Below are positions 23,259 through 32,969 of a DNA stretch of 64,000 nucleotides, one piece after another; position 1 is the first letter of the stretch, and every line of letters starts with the position of its first letter. Both the position numbers and the translations under genes were made by a program. The notes beneath the pieces are model-generated. The model was not told the DNA's origin, did not search any database, and saw nothing but the letters and a program-made list of their open reading frames with translations. The stretch comes from Paramecium tetraurelia (lineage: Eukaryota), in the NCBI GenBank assembly GCA_000165425.1, contig CT868207.1, positions 434,001-498,000 of the forward strand, written 5' to 3'.

Positions 23259-26200
23259 TCATTAGTAAATTTGCACCAAATATCTCATCTTTACTCTGCT
23301 TTCATCATAGACAATATATTCTGAATTTTGAGTGTAAAAACTTATATTCTTAGTCCTCTCTTATATTTAATGAGGGATTGAATTAGAAACAATTTACCCG
23401 ATGGGAACTACACATCCATTAGGCATTTTTATTTAAGACATTGGATCAGGGCCTTTGGAGCCAACAGCTTTCAAAGTATATTCAGGTTCTAATAAATATA
23501 AATGAATTCGTACTTTAATATTCAAGACAATTTTTATGGGGCTCATTGTATGCATCAATTTAATTCATGCAACTTACTTCACATAATAATAAATATCGAT
23601 ATTTTTGGTACTGATTAGTATTATTTTGGTTCCCATAAAACTAATTATATCTATGATTGATTGAATAATCTTAAGTATAATTATAGCTCTTTGAAAATTG
23701 ATCTGCAAAATAGATACCTTTTCCAAACATCGCTCCTGTATTTACTGCCCAGGAAGGTGCAACTATAATAATTTAAATATTAATTACTTTTTAATCCTAA
23801 GGCTAGTAAACTCATGAAATTGGAAATCTTTGAACCATGCCATAAAAGAATTCTAGGTCCTTGATTAAATTTGTCAAATTTCTACGCCTCTCCTTTTCTT
23901 TCGATAGCAAAGATATTTGCAATTGTAACACTTTAAGTTCTTTAGATGTATGTTTATATCATCTTATATTCTAGATCCGACGTATTCAAAGTAAGCATTT
24001 TAATATTCAATGCATTAAAACAATAAGTTATAGGATGAATAGAATTTAAATTATAATTTGCTCCAAGTAATATCTTAATAGCTTGTTCAACGTTTAGTAG
24101 TAATTCTAAAAGTTGTAATTGTTCATTGATTATTTCTTAAGTTTCCAATAATGGTAAGAGATTTTATCTCATTTAAACTTTTGGAATTAATTCATAATAT
24201 CTAGCAGACTTGTCATTGATTTCTGAATAATATTATTACAATCTCTTTAGATCGACATCTATTTAATTCATATAGAGATTGACTTCTAAAACTATTTCTT
24301 TAAGTTCTAATAATATTTCCTTAGCTTTTAGTATTGTATTTTTGTCTAACTTTTCAATTGGTACAAATCCTGTATCAAATTGATGGCTTTGTAATTCTTA
24401 TTAATATAATTTAACCTAGGAGAATTGCTCAATAACTTTGTAAATGCTAGTATCTAACTTACATTTAGGATATGGCGATTACTCGCTTAAATCAAAAGGT
24501 TCTAAGAGAGATTTGTAGCTCTTGTTATTTTAACACTTAATAAGCTGATACTTTTCTGGCTTTTTATCGAATTCTTCTTCTCCTGATTTTATCAATTTCC
24601 AATTATTGCCACCTGTTTTGGCAGCAAATATTTTACAGAATTCCTTAATTGTGGTTTCCAAATTTTCAAAGGGAGTCATTTAAAATTGACCCTGTTCCCC
24701 GATTTGACCCCATTTTGTGAACAAAATATAATTATTTCTATTTTTATCAAATAAGATTTGCATCTTATAGAATACATTTTTATGAAAGTTTCTATTCACA
24801 ATATCAACCTTAGAGAGCAAACATTACCATAGGCCATAATCTTGATCATCATAAACACTCAAATCGCCCTTAGCAATTTTGGCCTATTAATCCACAATTT
24901 ACTTATTATCAATTTCAGCTTCTATTTAAATATTCTTTTTTTCTAAGAACTATAGAGCATCTTCTTCAAAATCTACTTCATGATCTGGCCATAGTGCTGT
25001 GGCTATTACAGAAGTAGCCATTCTTTGTTATCTCAAGCTTCTAGTGTGATGAGCATTATTAGCTAAGAGTTCATCCTTCATGAGTTAAGCATCAAATATT
25101 AAAGCGTAATCTAGTGGAGTCAATCCATTATTATCTTTAAGGTTGTAATCAAATATTGTCATTAAAATTTTCAACATTTCAACATTTTCATAGGATCCGA
25201 AATCTAATGGCAAGACAACATGATGAATAGGAGTTTTCCCCTCATTATCACGCATTTAAAGCTAAGTATTAAATGAGGGCTGCCTAATCAAAAATTTCAC
25301 AAATTCTAAATTGTTATTTTTAATAGCAATATTCAATGCTGTTTAGCCTTGATGATTCTATTCATTAATGTCAATTCCGTAATCCACAAATTTTTAGAGT
25401 TTCCAAGAGTCATAAATCTTTAAGTGATCAACTAAATACATGAAGGGTTTAATATACGAATTTGTATTTAAAATTTTGAATTTAACATCCATCTTTAACC
25501 CTAGTTGCATCATCCTATCAAAATTATAATTTTAGTTTCTTTGGAAAAGTAAAGTGAAAGCATTATTATCTGTATTGTCCATCAGATTAGGATCACATTT
25601 TCTATTATATAGGAAATATTCAACTAATAAATCATTATTCTTTGAGATTGCATCATGCAGAGGTAATTTTTGATTGTTATCTTAAACATAAGGACTGATA
25701 TTCTTTTATTCAAATTATTCTACTATTTCTGATAACAAGTCTGCAGGAACTTTAGCTGAATAAATTGCGAATAAATGAAATAGGTTTTACCCATTAGAAT
25801 TTAATTTGGATAAATCCTTCTCATTCTTCACTTTCATTAAGAGAGTGAGAACTAATTAAAATTAATTTGCATTAATGGCATCTTGAATTGCATTTACAAA
25901 TTCATATCCATCACTAATTAATAAGTAGGCGACACCTTGCCATCCAAATTTAATTGCTTAAGAGAAATAACTATATTCTCCAGTTTACAAATTATTATGT
26001 AGATGTTATGGGAGATCCAAATCTTAACTAATCTTTTATTGTATTTTTTATAATATCAATCTCTCTCTTTAAGTTATTTTATCAGACTAGCTTCTCTCAA
26101 ATTGAGGAAGTATCTTTTATTATTATTATTATAATTTCTATTTATCTCTTTTACGAGAATAAAATACATTCTTCTCTGAACCATCATCGCAGGAGTTTCC

Positions 26201-29200
26201 CTCTGAATATTCATCATCTTCTTAATAATCATCGTCAGACTCATCATCTATTTAGACTTATAGCTACTACTATTAATTTTAAGCCGCTTATTTTACTCTT
26301 TCATTCTCATCCTCAATGATCATCAGTTGATCAATTTCAGGATCAGTCTTTATTTCTTCTCTGTACATCTTCTCTTTTTGTTATCTCAAATCACTTAGAC
26401 TGACAATGTTGATAACCTTATTCACATCAACCTTATTGTCAATCAACATTGTACTGAAATTAGCATGTTTAAAGAAAGAATAGGCTATTGGTGTATTCTT
26501 ATAAATATCAGGAGTATCAACAGCTGCTCCCATCTTTATCATGTATCTACCTGAAATTGCACTTCCTCTTAAGGCTGCATAATGCAATGGAGATCTTTAA
26601 TATCGATCCAATACATTAACATCACATTCTTTGAAGGCTAATAAAGATGAGACTGATTCAAATGGATCTATCTCATTTGTTGAAGTAGGTTCATTAAATT
26701 TAGTGAAGGAATAAAATAATGGAGTTCTACCATAGATATCTTTTATATCACATTTAGCTCCGAATTTGATCAATTATTATTCCATCTAAAAACTTGCATT
26801 TGCATTTGGATTACTGAAATTTATAGCAAAATGTAGTGATGTCCTACCTTTCTGATCTTAATAGTTTGGATCTACTTTGAATTCTGACAAGAAAACCTTT
26901 ACAGTCTGTAAGTCTGTTTTCTCTACAAATTAATTTAGAGGCACTTAATTCTAATTATTAACATCATTTAATTAACCACCTAAACTTATAAGTTTAACTA
27001 AAAGAGCATGCCATGAGTAATTATACTTTAGTGCTATCATCAAGGTTGGAGTGTTTCCATGAGAGTTTCTATCATTAAAATCTAAACCTAACTTTATCAC
27101 ATAATCTAAAAATGAAAATGATGTTTCATCGTTTCTATGTAATATTACTAGATTATGGTTAAAGCATTTAAAGAAATAATGCAAAGGAGTACCAAATTGA
27201 TCTCTTTGAGTAAGCATCTCATTTGGGAATATTTATAACAATTCCTTGACAAAGGAGATACTTGGAAATGACTCGAAAATCAAATGGAATATATTTGTGT
27301 TATTTTAAACTGCAGTTTAGTTGTAACTTCTCTATGTCATTACATTCGAATTTATATTGGCTCCTTTTTAAATGAGATGCTTTAATTGTTTAAACATTTA
27401 ATTTTAGTAGAAATAACCATCCTCAATTCTTTTCATTTCTAATTAATTTTATTTCTTAACTGAAATTCCTACTTAAACTGAAATTACATCATATTAAAAA
27501 TATGATGCATAAAGCTTGCAATCTGCATTTTATAGTCTCTTCTGAATTTCATTCTAAAATTACTGCTAAGGTGTTTAATTGTAGTTTGAGTATCCTTAAT
27601 TGTTATTATAATTGCAGTTCGAAGTTCCAAAATTGTTATTCGAAAATCCGAAATTGCTACTCTAATTTTAAAAAACTGAACTCCCTTAATTAGAAGAAAA
27701 TAAATTATTGCTATTTCCAAAACCAAAAGTAGTTTGAGGTTATGGTTATGCAAATATATTTTATTGTTATTACTATGGTTATGCAAATCTATTTGATTGT
27801 TATTACTATTATCCATATCCAAATGTTGTTTGATTTTAAGGTCGACCAAATAAATTATTTTATTGAACCATAGTATTCATTGGAATGTTTAATCCTTATT
27901 ATTAAACTTATTGAATTTAACCAACTGTTTATTAGTTCTGAAACAAACCTCCTGATACATTGACTTAATTCTTAAATAAATTTTCTATTACTTTCTCTTA
28001 TTTATTAGGCATCATTATAGATTCTTAAGTAATTTATTCAGATAATCTCTCTTCAAATGTTTTCTGTGCTTGCTAACCTTCTTATAATAATTCTTTTTAA
28101 AACTTATATTTATACTCATTTTCAATGTCTTAAAATATTTCATTCTTGGCTTTCACAATATTAGATTAAAACTCTTATTCAATTTTTGATGCAATGGATG
28201 TTACAAAAATCTAAATGACCTTTAAATGAGGTACAAATCCTTGAATATCAGGTTGGTGAAGTAGAGATGGATTTATCTTATCTAAAATTATTTAGAATAG
28301 TTAAATTCCAAGGTCGTCATAAAAGTACTGATTTTCAATCATAATGTGTAATAATGTTTTATCTTCTCTATTTACTATATTTAAATCAATCTAATTCTCT
28401 TAAAGAAGTTCAAGGCAGAGCTTATAATTCTTTTTAGACAACAATAATGAAAATGGGGTTAATCCATTTTCTTTTTCCTATGAGTTAATATTAGCTCCAT
28501 TTGCAATTAATAATTTGATTAATTTATCTTATATTTTTGATTGTTAACCATTAATAGCATGCAACAAGCTAGATCTGCCATCCTTATCTTAACTATTTAT
28601 GTCTGCACCATGGTCTATCAATAATTGAATGAGATCAATTAATAAATCTGAGAAGGTGCATGATAAGGCATGTTACAAACAAGTTTTACCGAATTTATCT
28701 TATATGTTGATATCAGCCTTTTTTTCTGCAATAATATACTTAATGAATTCAAATTACTCAACTGATTAATCAAACTACTTGATTAGCCCAGCGACTAAAG
28801 TTAAGCCATCATCATCAATACAATTTACATCTGTACTTTCTAATTTCAACAATGCTTTAACAATACCTATATGATTTTTTGCTTAAGCTACATTCAAAGG
28901 TTTCAATTTCCAAGAGTTGAATTCATTCTAATCAGCTCCAGCCTCAATCAAAGTTTAAATACAATCTAAAAAGCCATATGCTGCAGCATGATGAATGGCA
29001 TTATTTTTTGAGGAATCACTAATTTTAAAGTCTGCCCCATAATATAGCAATTTAGACAAAATGGCCAAATTTCCATTTCTAGCAGCCATAATTAATGGTG
29101 TTCTTCCAAATTTATCCTTAGCATTGATTCTTGCCCCTTCATCTAACAAATATTCAACCAATTCTAAATGATTATAGGCAGCAGCATAATGCAAAGCTGT

Positions 29201-30953
29201 CATTCTGTTTCTTCCTGCAAAATTAATCAACAATCCGTTTTCAATTAATATTTTTACACATTCAACGTGACCATTTTAACTAGCAAAATGAATTGCAGAA
29301 TTGCCCTCCTTATTTTTTGCTTTCAAATTAGTATTTACTACTAATAATTTAACGTTATGGGAACGACCATATTTAGCTGCTAGCATCAAAGGAGTATCCA
29401 AAAATTTATTACCTTCTCTTGCATCAACACCATTTGCTAGCAAATATTCTAAGCAATTTGAGGTTTAGGAGACAGCAGCATAATGAATTGGCTTACTACC
29501 ATTTTCATCTTAGATATTGTATTCCATTGTCTACTCCATAAAATACTTTAGGAACTGTTCGGATGGATTTATACATGCACAATGAATAGGAGTAATGAGA
29601 AAATCATTCTAGGTTTTCTTAGTAATGGATATCTTTTTTATTTAATCTAATTTATAAGTGCTGAAATTATCATCTAATGCATCATGATGTAAATAATTAA
29701 AGCCATAACCATCGAGGTTGTTTGTTAATGCATATTTGATCAAGAATTTAGCAGACTTTATATTACCACATCTAACTGCAAAAGCAACATTCTCAATTAA
29801 ATAGTGATCATATTTTGATGATTTTAGATAAATGAATAATTATTCATACATTTCACAATTTGTTTCAATCTCTAATAACCTTCTACATACTTAATTGCTA
29901 TCAAAATGATAATTTAGATCATAAACAAATGCATTGTTTCCTTCTCTATTTCCTCTACCAAGAGCAACCTTTCTCAATTTTACCCCATAAGCTTGTTTAT
30001 TATTATAACCTGTGTCTATTTCTTTTAACTGGCAAGGTAAATCTGCATAAAATCTATTTCTTTTCGTTGCATTTTACAGAAAATGAGTCAATAATTGTTT
30101 ATCTTATCTTCTAAATAGGATATCAAATATTGAAATATCATATTCTGGTCCCCATCTATCATAATAATTAGATATTCTTTTGGCTTCAAATAAAATTTAA
30201 TCCATCAGAGCCTTATTCCCTGTATTTGCTGCTCTTATGATTTCTTTGTTATTCATTCTTGTGCTATCGTAATCAATAAAATGATCTTCAGTTCCTTCAA
30301 ATTGAGTACTAAAACTCTTTAGATTTTTAAGATTTTCATTCATTTTTCTTTTCCTCTTTTTTCCCTTTTTCTTGTCTTTTTCTTCGGTTTTTCTAGATTA
30401 TCTTTATTTTTTTGGGACAGGCTCAGCTTCTGCAGATGAACTTTGTTCACTTGATTCTTCTTCATATTGACTAAATTGAGATTCTACTTATGTTTTTTAT
30501 TAGGCTGATTTTCTGGCTTTTTTTTTAATTGGTTTATCATTAGACTCCTCCTCATCATCATCAAATTTTTTCTATGATTATTTGACTTTCTATTTCAAAT
30601 CCTTAATTAAGCTTCTCTGACTTTATTTATATATCTCCATGTCTACTACATAAATAGTTTCATCTGAATGAATGACTGATATTCCTTCGATATCAACCCT
30701 AAAATATATGTACTATTTACCATTTTGTCTGCGAAGGAATTGTTGTGTATCCATTACATTTATATTATTATTTACTTTTCTTTTTCTTTTCAAATGGTAC
30801 CAATTCGGTTACATGAAATTCTTCTTCATTCTCATTCCAATCCTAAAGTAGTTTGTATAAGGTGAATTCTGTTTCAACTTTACACAATATAACTTAGTCT
30901 TTTTTTAAAATCTATTCTTTTTTGGCGCGATTGCTTCTTAAATTTCTATTCAT
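23259..30953 (-). CDS. Giant ankyrin-repeat, WGR, PARP-regulatory, PARP-catalytic protein (~2540 aa; tankyrase/PME-5-like architecture)
   Basis: Many ankyrin repeats (e.g. TALHYAAAYNHLELVEYLL, GRTPLIMAARNGNL). WGR-like FYKMQI...YILFTKWGQIG...FCKIFAAKTG. Catalytic LLWHGS, MFGKGIYFAD, NSEYIVYDE (H-Y-E). Introns of 22 (30699-30720), 25 and 25 nt give a length divisible by 3. Confidence 0.93.
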
Positions 30954-31142: not shown

Positions 31143-32969
31143 TCACAAAGCCTGTTGGATGATTTCGTCAATCGTTTTGTCTATTGTTCTAATATGGATT
31201 ATGAAGGATGCTGCCTTTGCTACTATATTTAAGTCTGGATCAAGAGTCTTTGCTAAACCCTCTAATACAATCATGTTTGTCAGCAGAGCTGCAAAATGAC
31301 CTTCAATGGACATTCCGTTTGCTCTCAAGATTTCCAACATAGATCTCAATACCTATCCTATATTCATTTAAGCTAAAGGTACTTTACAAACATTTGTGAA
31401 TAAATCTTACATTTCTTTCATAAATTTATCTTATACTTTTTGTTCGATTTATCTCTAGTTATATTATGCTAATTGCAACATTAGCTTTCCACATTCATAA
31501 GGTTTTCTCAAAGTTACAAACATAACTAATTTAATGAATGATGCGCGATCACTCTTATTTAAAATGGTTATCATCCCAGGGTCTAGAAAGATAATCTAAA
31601 CATCCTTTCTTGTTGAACCTTAACATCTCAAAAAGGTATGAAACAACCTTTCATCAGACTTTTTTTCTTATTTCAATTTTAACATCTATAAATAATATAA
31701 TAATCAATACATTTCCTTGATCCATCGTCTATGATGAAGTCTGATATTCTGCTATCTTTGTTAGCCCCTTCTCTATTAAGTCATCAACAATTTCATAGAC
31801 TGAATCTTGAAGAAACCATAATTGTTATTAAACCTTTTCATTAAAGGTTTTAGGAACAGGAAGGTCTTTAATTCTTATCATGATATTGCCTGCATGACAA
31901 TCTGCGTGAATAAAGTTATCATAGATCAACATTTTATAAAATGCTTTCAAACCTAAATTAGCTAGAGCATAATGCTCTTCTGTTCTTTCCTGCTTCAAGA
32001 ATTAGGTTAAAGGTATAGCATCTTCATAAGTTTCAGTGAGGATGTCTGCTGAAATATATTCTTCAATTGGCCTAGGAAATATGACATGGGGATTATTTTT
32101 AAACTTTTCACAAAAAACCTTAAGGTTTCTACCTTCAAATCTTAAATCGGTTTGATTCACAAGAGTTTTCTAAAATTCTTCAAATGTCACAGGCATCCCC
32201 AATTATTTGATTTTCAAAGTTTAACTAAAAAAATTTGCAATCTTATATAAAATTCTTATATCCATCACTAAATTATCTATGATGTCTGGATGCCTTACTT
32301 TAATAGCAACATATTCTCCATTTAATTTAGCTCTATGAACCTGGGCTATTGAGGCTGAGGCAATCGGTTTTTCCTCAAACTCATCAAAAACATCTTTGAT
32401 TTTCTTTTTAAAAGCTTATTCAAATTATTAGTTAGTCTTCTCCAAAGAATGAGGAGGAGTATCATCTCTCAATGATTCTAAAGCCTTAATTATCTCCTCT
32501 CCGAAAATATCCCCTCTATGACTGGCCCATTGTCCTAATTTTATCCATAAGGGACCTGCTGATTACAGAGTGTAAACCAAGTACTTAAGCCAATATGGAA
32601 ACAAGTAGGCCTTGAATATTAATGAAAATGGCAAAGCAATGGCCAAAGGTAAAAATTTTAATAGCAAATGCATAAATCTGATCTTTCTCCTTAAACTCTA
32701 GATCATTCTCTGAAACAAAGACAGTTGTTTTGAATTCTTCTCTCCAAAGTATTCTTATGTTAAAGCCTTGATTAAAAATGTGAATTTACTTCAGTGTCAG
32801 GAATCTGATTGTACATCGATGAAAAATGCATTTATTGATACCTTTCTCTGCCTTGCCTATATAAGATATATGAGAAACCCGCCCCCAGGCCAAGCCCTAT
32901 TTTGGTTTTGGTAAAAAAGGGCTATGATTTATTCAAATGTGTAAATGGATATTTAAGAATTTTTTACAT
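31143..32969 (-). CDS. ABC1/UbiB-family atypical kinase, ADCK2/Cqd1-like
   Basis: AGPLWIKLGQWASHRGDIF, PIASASIAQVHRA, VAIKVRHP, QTDLRFEG, NFIHADCHAGNI and LEGLAKTLDPDLN; TGA at 31143-31145. Confidence 0.92.

Follow-up and report, generated by a model that had tools for sequence, protein, structure and literature searches.

Is an almost uncharged, phenylalanine-bearing tract of about 130 residues, inserted between the ankyrin arrays of a poly(ADP-ribose) polymerase (PARP), a working relative of the FG domains found in nuclear pore proteins? The question is raised by a gene on the minus strand of Paramecium tetraurelia contig CT868207.1 (assembly GCA_000165425.1), within the 64,000-nt stretch from position 434,001 to 498,000 that was analyzed here (the window; coordinates below are those of this stretch). 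A first-pass annotation, made from the letters alone, had placed the tract at 27570-27965 and likened it to the cohesive FG domains of Nup98-type nucleoporins. Our analysis indicates that FG-type loops of this kind are real, expressed in the case of the window gene, and recurrent in the PARP family to which it belongs; that the loop makes contacts at nuclear pores is a reading that we put forward tentatively.

Under the ciliate genetic code (NCBI table 6), the low-complexity peptide lies in frame on the minus strand, between the ankyrin arrays of the PARP, exactly as annotated. Its core of 112 aa (27617..27952, minus strand; mature residues 994-1105) runs from GGLFQ to NNFGTSN and corresponds to residues 1000-1111 of the open reading frame (ORF) at 23579-30949. 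It contains 12 Phe and six FG dipeptides, and its composition is Q30 N18 G12 F12 S10 T7 P5 L4 V4 I3 M2 R2 A2 Y1, with no D, E, or K. The successive motifs are GLFQ, NLFG, TTFG, NRFA, NIFA, TTFG, FGFG, NLFS, SVFQ, SNFG, FGFS, and NNFG. The near absence of charge was also described correctly: a run of 140 aa free of D, E, and K spans 27551..27970 on the minus strand (coordinates by arithmetic) and is the longest in the window, the second-longest being 64 aa among the 149 six-frame ORFs of at least 150 aa (38,147 aa). When these 149 ORFs were scored for FG content in windows of 100 aa, the tract ranked first with a score of 20, while the runner-up, with a score of 11 and no FG at all, resembles a non-coding frame. 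The complete 152-aa linker holds six FG dipeptides, a number reached by 0.0001 of 20,000 shuffles, and the residues that follow its Phe give the contexts FG 6, FQ 2, FA 2, FS 2, and FK 1.

Phe occurs once per 9.3 aa in the core and once per 11.7 aa in the linker, and strict FG once per ~19-25 aa. The regular spacing that had been ascribed to these Phe residues did not hold in the window species, where the coefficient of variation (CV) of the gaps over the whole linker is 0.75 (shuffle fraction 0.32, not significant) because of one 31-residue gap, but spacing is significantly regular in two orthologs (CV 0.25, 0/20,000 shuffles; CV 0.49, fraction 0.025). Two 33-nt (11-codon) tandem duplications were detected with TRF. 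The first (27741..27809; 2.1 copies, 94% matches) encodes SNRFAQPQQQQ/QNIFAQPQPQ, and the second (27576..27640; 2.0 copies, 81% matches) lies at the C-terminal edge of the tract.

The orthologs compared were those of the window species, P. pentaurelia, P. primaurelia, and P. sonneborni, and the linkers of the latter three are positionally homologous to the linker in the window. Phe accounts for 13/152, 13/167, 14/167, and 11/117 residues, respectively, or 7.8-9.4% of the linker versus 4.8-5.4% of the remaining protein, with an F:Y ratio of at least 2.8. All four linkers are 39-42% Q+N, with 2-5 Tyr, and D+E number only 2-4 in each, whereas the remaining protein is 24.7-24.8% DEKR. Between the window species and its orthologs, linker identity is 35-44%, with many indels, as compared with 82-87% in the flanks. 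Composition is therefore maintained in the orthologs while the sequence drifts. FG enrichment is also found in the P. pentaurelia linker (shuffle fraction 0.0003), and the commonest Phe context in ten tracts examined is N/S/G-L-F-G/N/Q/S. In older Paramecium paralogs, linker 1 is acidic plus basic and short FG bits are found in linker 2; in P. bursaria, FG bits are found in both linkers.

The wider family was surveyed with a test that calls an FG cluster at three or more FG per 50 aa with at most four charges. Such clusters were found in 19/139 long family proteins (12/114 once near-copies were removed), but in only 1/2780 shuffled proteins and in none of 14 non-PARP ankyrin proteins. In a FastTree phylogeny of the catalytic region (114 rows), nine of the 12 FG-cluster proteins fall in a clade of 31 rows (SH-like support 97) to which every Paramecium row belongs, and none was found in the animal (28 rows), fungal, or amoebozoan clades. 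The other three FG-cluster proteins lie outside the 31-row clade, one of them from an oomycete, Pythium insidiosum, and the distribution on the tree requires at least seven gains or losses. In every mapped case the FG islands are flanked by ANK-motif arrays. The strongest island of the family is that of P. insidiosum P0195 (residues 1286-1452; 20 Phe and 13 FG in 167 aa), which also lies between ankyrin arrays and is S/T/G/A/P-rich, not Q/N-rich; the named oomycete relatives (Phytophthora, Lagenidium) have no FG cluster. Family members of 3.75-3.83 thousand residues each stand alone on contigs of 11.6-11.9 kb, which suggests that they may sit on gene-sized ciliate chromosomes.

An AlphaFold2 model was made of a 381-residue piece of the protein with an alignment (A1) of 13 homologs. 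Residues 100-243 of this fragment have a predicted local distance difference test score (pLDDT) below 50 and no secondary structure, and they are preceded by a long helix (28-99; pLDDT per block up to 95) and followed by a helix-hairpin-helix (248-315; ~90). The predicted disordered loop corresponds to ORF residues 979-1122 (mature ~973-1116; 27584..28015, minus strand). According to this model, the tract would be a disordered loop-out of ~145 residues, set between a pair of helices within the linker connecting the ankyrin arrays.

Is the tract translated at all? In 27376-28037, read with table 6, few stops interrupt any of the three minus frames, and the tract is also spanned by one plus frame; in low-complexity, AT-rich DNA in which TAA and TAG encode Gln, open frames alone therefore prove no coding. 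Of the 30 Gln codons in the tract, 23 are TAA or TAG, and the shares of TAA, TAG, CAA, and CAG resemble those of the remaining ORF. The RNA evidence consisted of three raw stranded oligo-dT RNA-seq runs and one contig run (X5). Inclusion in mRNA, which the first-pass annotation had named as a point to confirm, is borne out by a 6928-nt contig of X5 that spans 23996-30945 and crosses the tract unbroken; this contig lacks exactly the 22-nt GT..AG intron 1 and is therefore derived from spliced RNA. In the raw data, the tract bin 27572-27838 has reads in two of the three runs, at a depth of 0.3-0.43. The reads of all three stranded runs share one orientation, and the transcribed strand, judging from the usual library design, is presumably the minus strand. 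No splice joints were reported anywhere in the gene in these low-depth runs, whose depth is too thin for splice joints or for quantifying inclusion. Removal of the tract by splicing would require a 336-nt intron, which is out of scale because the introns of this gene measure 22-25 nt. The deposited protein models from three other Paramecium species hold the homologous tract in frame, and no Rfam family was matched within 26500-29000. On the strength of the RNA, the intron scale, and the orthologous models, we conclude that the tract is a translated protein segment.

How far does the tract resemble known FG domains? In the available text of Ng et al. 2023 (PMC9918544), Nup98-type cohesive FG domains are described as 500-700 residues long, extremely depleted of charge, and rich in GLFG, with about one motif per 12 residues and ~50 motifs in all; they avoid Y, H, C, W, V, and I, and their phase separation depends on repeat number. 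Like these domains, of which Tetrahymena MacNup98A is an example, the tract is (by prediction) disordered, depleted of charge, and built of N/Q/S/T/G-rich spacers with a Phe motif every ~9-12 residues; Nup98-type domains are likewise fast-evolving and repeat-driven (PMC9918544). The likeness in composition claimed by the annotation is therefore sound as regards charge, spacers, and motif density, but it does not extend to length or to GLFG. The window linker contains five GLFG-like motifs ([GNS][LIMV]F[GNQSA]) and no exact GLFG, although strict FG does not appear to be required, because GLFG-to-GLFS variants still form a selective phase (PMC9918544). Unlike Nup98, the tract has no nucleoporin anchor domain beside it and is an internal loop of an enzyme.

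Ciliate nucleoporins offer a closer comparison in their mixture of motifs. Tetrahymena nucleoporins use FX repeats (X = N, Q, S, A) in addition to FG (PMC5450191, PMC5824931), and the pores of the macronucleus (MAC) and the micronucleus (MIC) differ in repeat flavor, GLFG versus NIFN; on this point the annotation agrees with what is printed in Iwamoto et al. 2017 (PMC5450191; see also PMC5824931). Like ciliate FX-repeat nucleoporins, which mix FG, FN, FQ, FA, and FS, the tract mixes FG, FQ, FA, FS, and FK. A ciliate precedent for the gain of such a domain is Tetrahymena Nup308, the Nup205 ortholog, a large solenoid protein that acquired a GLFG domain (PMC5450191). Nup308 differs in being a true pore component with a 570-residue N-terminal GLFG domain, whereas the tract is short, internal, and part of a PARP.

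No nucleoporin family was matched in Pfam, either by the whole protein (E up to 0.01) or by the tract alone (E up to 10), for which the only match was LBP_M, at chance level. It should be noted that the Nucleoporin_FG profile is a weak test in this family, as it matched 0/8 relatives, including one with 13 FG in a 167-aa island. When the tract (residues 995-1135) was compared with shorter proteins (E up to 1), none of 379 candidates scored, and a PDB sequence search with the tract returned two matches, both at chance level. Taken together, these searches suggest no sequence-level link between the tract and nucleoporins or other shorter proteins.

Among described enzymes, Tetrahymena thermophila PARP6 (TTHERM_00502600) is similar in being a clade-1A PARP of ~300 kDa with ~25 ankyrin repeats, a PARP regulatory domain (PRD), and a catalytic domain (PMC6502085). 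PARP6 is nuclear, being found in the MAC and MIC during growth, in the MAC only in early conjugation, and then in the new MAC; it copurifies with H2A and H3, and its location follows transcriptional activity (PMC6502085). The available part of that account reports AT-hooks and mentions no FG-like tract. Human tankyrases 1 and 2 (clade 4) are also ankyrin-repeat PARPs, and a subset of tankyrase is located at nuclear pore complexes in interphase (PMC12940019, citing Smith and de Lange 1999), in an account whose available sections mention no FG tract. A full-text search of a limited literature collection yielded no description of an FG-type tract in any PARP, in line with the annotation's statement that none had been described. 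On Paramecium PARPs in connection with poly ADP-ribose and the macronucleus, the same limited collection gave nothing.

To our knowledge, charge-free FG-type Phe repeats are a near-signature of nuclear-pore proteins. The reading that we prefer, while giving it somewhat less than an even chance, is that the tract is a short cohesive FG-like sticker loop for contacts with pores or transport receptors. About a dozen Phe residues (mostly in xLFx, xFG, FQ, FA, and FS contexts), set in uncharged Q/N/S/T/G spacers, would act as stickers that touch FG nucleoporins or importin-beta-type receptors at many points, each contact being weak and hydrophobic. These contacts, beside a basic cluster resembling a nuclear localization signal (NLS), could help the ~290-kDa enzyme to enter, traverse, or linger at pores. 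The loop probably cannot form a phase by itself. It may resemble an FG domain in its working, but it is not a nucleoporin, and we infer its function, as we do every step that concerns binding, pores, or nuclei.

Several observations weigh against the sticker-loop reading. With 112-152 aa and ~12-13 motifs, as opposed to 500-700 aa and ~50, the tract is four to five times shorter than the Nup98 FG domains described in the available text of PMC9918544; exact GLFG is missing from all ten tracts examined; and residues said to be shunned by Nup98 domains are present, namely four Tyr in the linker, four Val, three Ile, and one Tyr in the core, and a Cys just past the core. The rarity of the tract was gauged against the 149 ORFs of the window only, and part of its 9-12-residue periodicity is due to the recent 33-nt duplications. 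The annotation had proposed to look in orthologs for Phe spacing conserved despite drift, and the tract and its Phe density are indeed conserved, but the Phe columns are no better conserved than the others (10/26 vs 88/278, Fisher p=0.51), and the P. sonneborni linker retains its Phe with only one FG (shuffle fraction 0.40). In addition, a sister paralog in P. primaurelia, P. pentaurelia, P. octaurelia, and P. tetraurelia has this linker cut to a few residues, with no FG in its linker 2 in any of the four species. In P. primaurelia and P. pentaurelia this paralog exists beside the copy with the loop, and because it lacks the tract, the tract is dispensable for core function. The RNA depth across the tract is very low (81-247 reads per 8 kb per run), and bins 27839-28372 have no raw reads in any of the three runs; these zero-depth bins were not read as exclusion, because they lie in the thinly covered 5' half of a transcript sampled with oligo-dT libraries. 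Finally, PARP6 staining is described for the MAC and MIC, and the available part of that account (PMC6502085) does not mention a nuclear rim.

A passive linker would explain a number of these points. In that case, the tract would be a flexible spacer between the arrays, and its FG look would result from replication slippage and AT-rich codons (TTT, AAT, TAA/CAA) under weak constraint. We regard this as possible but rather unlikely. It accords with the faster evolution of the linker than of its flanks and the many indels, with the two tandem duplications in or beside the tract, with lengths that range from 117 to 167 aa across orthologs, with the disappearance of the tract from the sister paralog in four species, and with Phe positions that are not specially conserved and an FG pattern that was lost in P. 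sonneborni. However, the same linker is strongly acidic and basic in other paralogs, so the passive linkers of this family appear to be charged, not charge-free. AT-rich drift should also add K, E, and D in roughly a quarter of changes. Charged residues would result from 25.7% of the possible single-base non-synonymous changes, a baseline that is not cleanly neutral because the folded flanks likewise show few changes to charged residues (7-18%), a caveat that counts against the sticker loop as well. The ortholog linker differences to charged residues are 5/71, 6/70, and 4/52, or 7-9% (shortfall p=6e-5 to 1e-3), and none of the residues inserted in orthologs is charged (0/16 and 0/11, or 0/27). 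Nor would a passive linker be expected to hold Phe at 7.8-9.4% versus 4.8-5.4% elsewhere, or to show FG clusters that recur in separate family lineages.

We consider it unlikely, although worth weighing, that the tract is a generic low-complexity domain of the prion-like or Q-rich kind whose action does not involve pores and which would work through self-association, through co-condensation on chromatin, or as a glutamine-rich activation domain. The 39-42% Q+N of all four orthologs, their 11-14 Phe and 2-5 Tyr, and the predicted disorder of the loop are all compatible with such a domain. The same is true of the copurification of PARP6 with H2A/H3 and its transcription-dependent location (PMC6502085), of the histone-related modules (acidic runs and the histone H3-tail mimics described below) in the linkers of relatives, and of a link between PARPs and phase separation that is mentioned in the abstract of PMC7050482. 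It is important to note that the same composition serves the pore reading equally well, and the data do not separate the two. Still, Phe outnumbers Tyr, and FG and LF contexts are enriched. This pattern is more characteristic of FG domains than of those of the FUS type. In addition, ~12 stickers would be a low valency for phase separation alone, given the dependence on repeat number described for Nup98 domains (PMC9918544).

An extension of the pore reading, which we consider quite improbable, is that the FG/FX loop serves as an address label recognized by the differing pores of the two kinds of nuclei. The loop would then set which nucleus (MAC, MIC, or developing MAC) this histone-linked PARP enters, and when, and the sister paralog without the loop would be distributed differently among the nuclei. 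FG loops, acidic runs, and H3-tail mimics could, on this proposal, be swappable targeting or regulatory cassettes of clade-1A PARPs. Last, the tract might be no protein feature at all, whether because it is an intron, because it is germline DNA that was retained, or because TAA/TAG were read as Gln in AT-rich non-coding DNA. This proposal is largely refuted: the additional open frames, the 23/30 TAA or TAG codons, and the near-zero raw RNA depth fit it, but the spliced X5 contig crosses the tract unbroken with no joints reported in the gene, Gln codon shares are like those of the remaining ORF, three other species hold the tract in frame, and Rfam is silent.

The gene that carries the tract is an ankyrin-WGR-PRD-PARP gene in AT-rich sequence (GC 0.22-0.31 in the window), whose protein is readable only under the ciliate code. 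Profile and database searches were run with the 2456-codon stop-to-stop ORF at 23579-30949 (minus strand, table 6). This 2456-aa read-through ORF was rejected as the product, being wrong at both termini (the N-terminal exon and the C-terminal exons), and was replaced by a model that was assembled by reading both ends and then splicing by coordinates. The resulting coding sequence spans 23259..30953 on the minus strand (ATG at 30953, stop at 23259-23261) and comprises four exons encoding 2540 aa, without internal stops and with 82% identity to P. pentaurelia P0002 over residues 1-2540. Exon 1 (30721..30953; MNRNLRS...QTKW) matches the N-terminus of P0002/P0003. Intron 1 (30699..30720; 22 nt, GT..AG), the one missing from the 6928-nt X5 contig, has a boundary that is uncertain by one base because of a repeated G. 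The 6.9-kb exon 2 (23788..30698) contains both ankyrin arrays, the FG loop, WGR, the PRD, and the start of the catalytic domain. Introns 2 (23763-23787) and 3 (23489-23513), each of 25 nt and GT..AG, were placed by reading the sequence and split the PARP catalytic domain; all of these features are on the minus strand.

Also on the minus strand, a basic cluster found by regex, KKKGKKRKRK (30344..30373; mature residues 187-196), would by its composition be a classical NLS-like cluster. Ankyrin repeats were identified with Pfam Ank_2 (E=4e-102, 10 stretches), and Ank, Ank_3, Ank_4, and Ank_5 all exceed their cut-offs; Pfam gave the number of stretches and coordinates for only some of them. The best-scoring stretch of array 1 covers ORF residues 521-612 (29114..29389). 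The start of array 2 was placed approximately at 26270..27202 from the translation and a crude ANK regex map, with motifs that include GTPLHYF, GRTSLHFA, GRTPLFYS, and RSPLHYAA. These are followed by the WGR domain (24587..24829; ORF residues 2041-2121; PF05406, E=4e-20, 72.1 bits, cut-off 22), the PRD (24017..24463; ORF residues 2163-2311; PF02877, E=4e-18, 66.3 bits, cut-off 26.8), and the catalytic domain (23259..23971), split by introns 2 and 3 and detected in its first exon part by PF00644 (43.1 bits). The spliced product carries the catalytic motif contexts LLWHGS, GKGIYFAD, and EYIVYDE, which may correspond to the H-Y-E triad known from PARP1.

The Ank+WGR+PRD+PARP architecture is that of clade 1A (Citarelli et al. 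2010, PMC2964712), and by its domain content the protein is an ordinary member of this clade of nuclear-type enzymes. A tankyrase (clade 4) identity was rejected: tankyrases, as described in the available part of PMC2964712, contain SAM but neither WGR nor PRD, and the window protein is the opposite, with WGR and PRD present and no SAM family among the Pfam matches of the whole protein. It is therefore not a tankyrase, because the SAM domain is absent. In the catalytic-region tree, which holds no clade-4 tankyrase outgroup, the protein groups with its Paramecium orthologs (support 100), and the nearest database proteins are 'Poly [ADP-ribose] polymerase' entries of P. pentaurelia, P. sonneborni, and P. 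primaurelia.

Near-perfect mimics of the histone H3 N-terminal tail were observed within, or at the N-terminus of, clade-1A ankyrin PARPs related to the window protein. In linker 2 of the P. sonneborni paralog P0024, residues 1590-1609 (ARTKQTARKSYGGKAPRKQL) are identical to H3 1-20 at 19/20 positions. A PDB search with this segment matched 132 sequences, the best 60 of which are H3 chains, peptides, or fusions (best E=7e-7). Against the P0024 template, P. tetraurelia P0026 (from residue 1580) and the amoebozoan Pyxidicula P0032 (from residue 1539) each match at 17/20 positions, and P0131 (2270 aa), in which the H3 tail begins at residue 2, matches at 19/20; the remaining proteins scanned reached at most 9/20. 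Weaker copies lie next to a GLFGGGF bit in linker 1 of P. bursaria. No such motif is present in the window gene, and no description of H3-tail mimics in PARPs was found among the literature matches listed, as far as their available text goes. The mimics could be pseudo-substrates, automodification sites, or reader-binding cassettes.

In the window's paralog group, linker 1 carries the FG loop and linker 2 an acidic/basic stretch. In the older paralog group, linker 1 is acidic/basic, and linker 2 holds either an H3 mimic or short FG bits; from these sequences, modules seem to be exchanged between the two inter-array linkers from one paralog group to another. In linker 2 of P0023, P0025, P0027, and P0028, TRSAFGQ is aligned where P0024 and P0026 have ARKSYGG, and some of the FG bits may thus be remnants of H3-tail mimics that have decayed.

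A few observations concern other parts of the window. Eleven reads of RNA run X21 stop at 24030, and their loose tail (consensus ATGGGTGAAGGC) is unlike the window; X5 contigs are also broken near 23991-24025; both may reflect cross-mapping from a conserved paralog. Upstream lies a minus-strand open frame of 378 aa (31654-32790), whose translation, judging from its motif, looks like a putative ABC1/UbiB-type atypical kinase. RNA reads were found from 31043 upward in all three runs.

An enzyme with such a loop would offer a natural test of whether FG-like segments this short are able to direct cargo of very large size toward nuclear pores or across them. The two-nucleus ciliate cell would allow a direct readout of nuclear selectivity, and the paralog pair with and without the loop in the same Paramecium species is a ready-made comparison. 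Should the loop prove inert, it would still document the origin and survival of sticky low-complexity loops without charge in AT-rich genomes.

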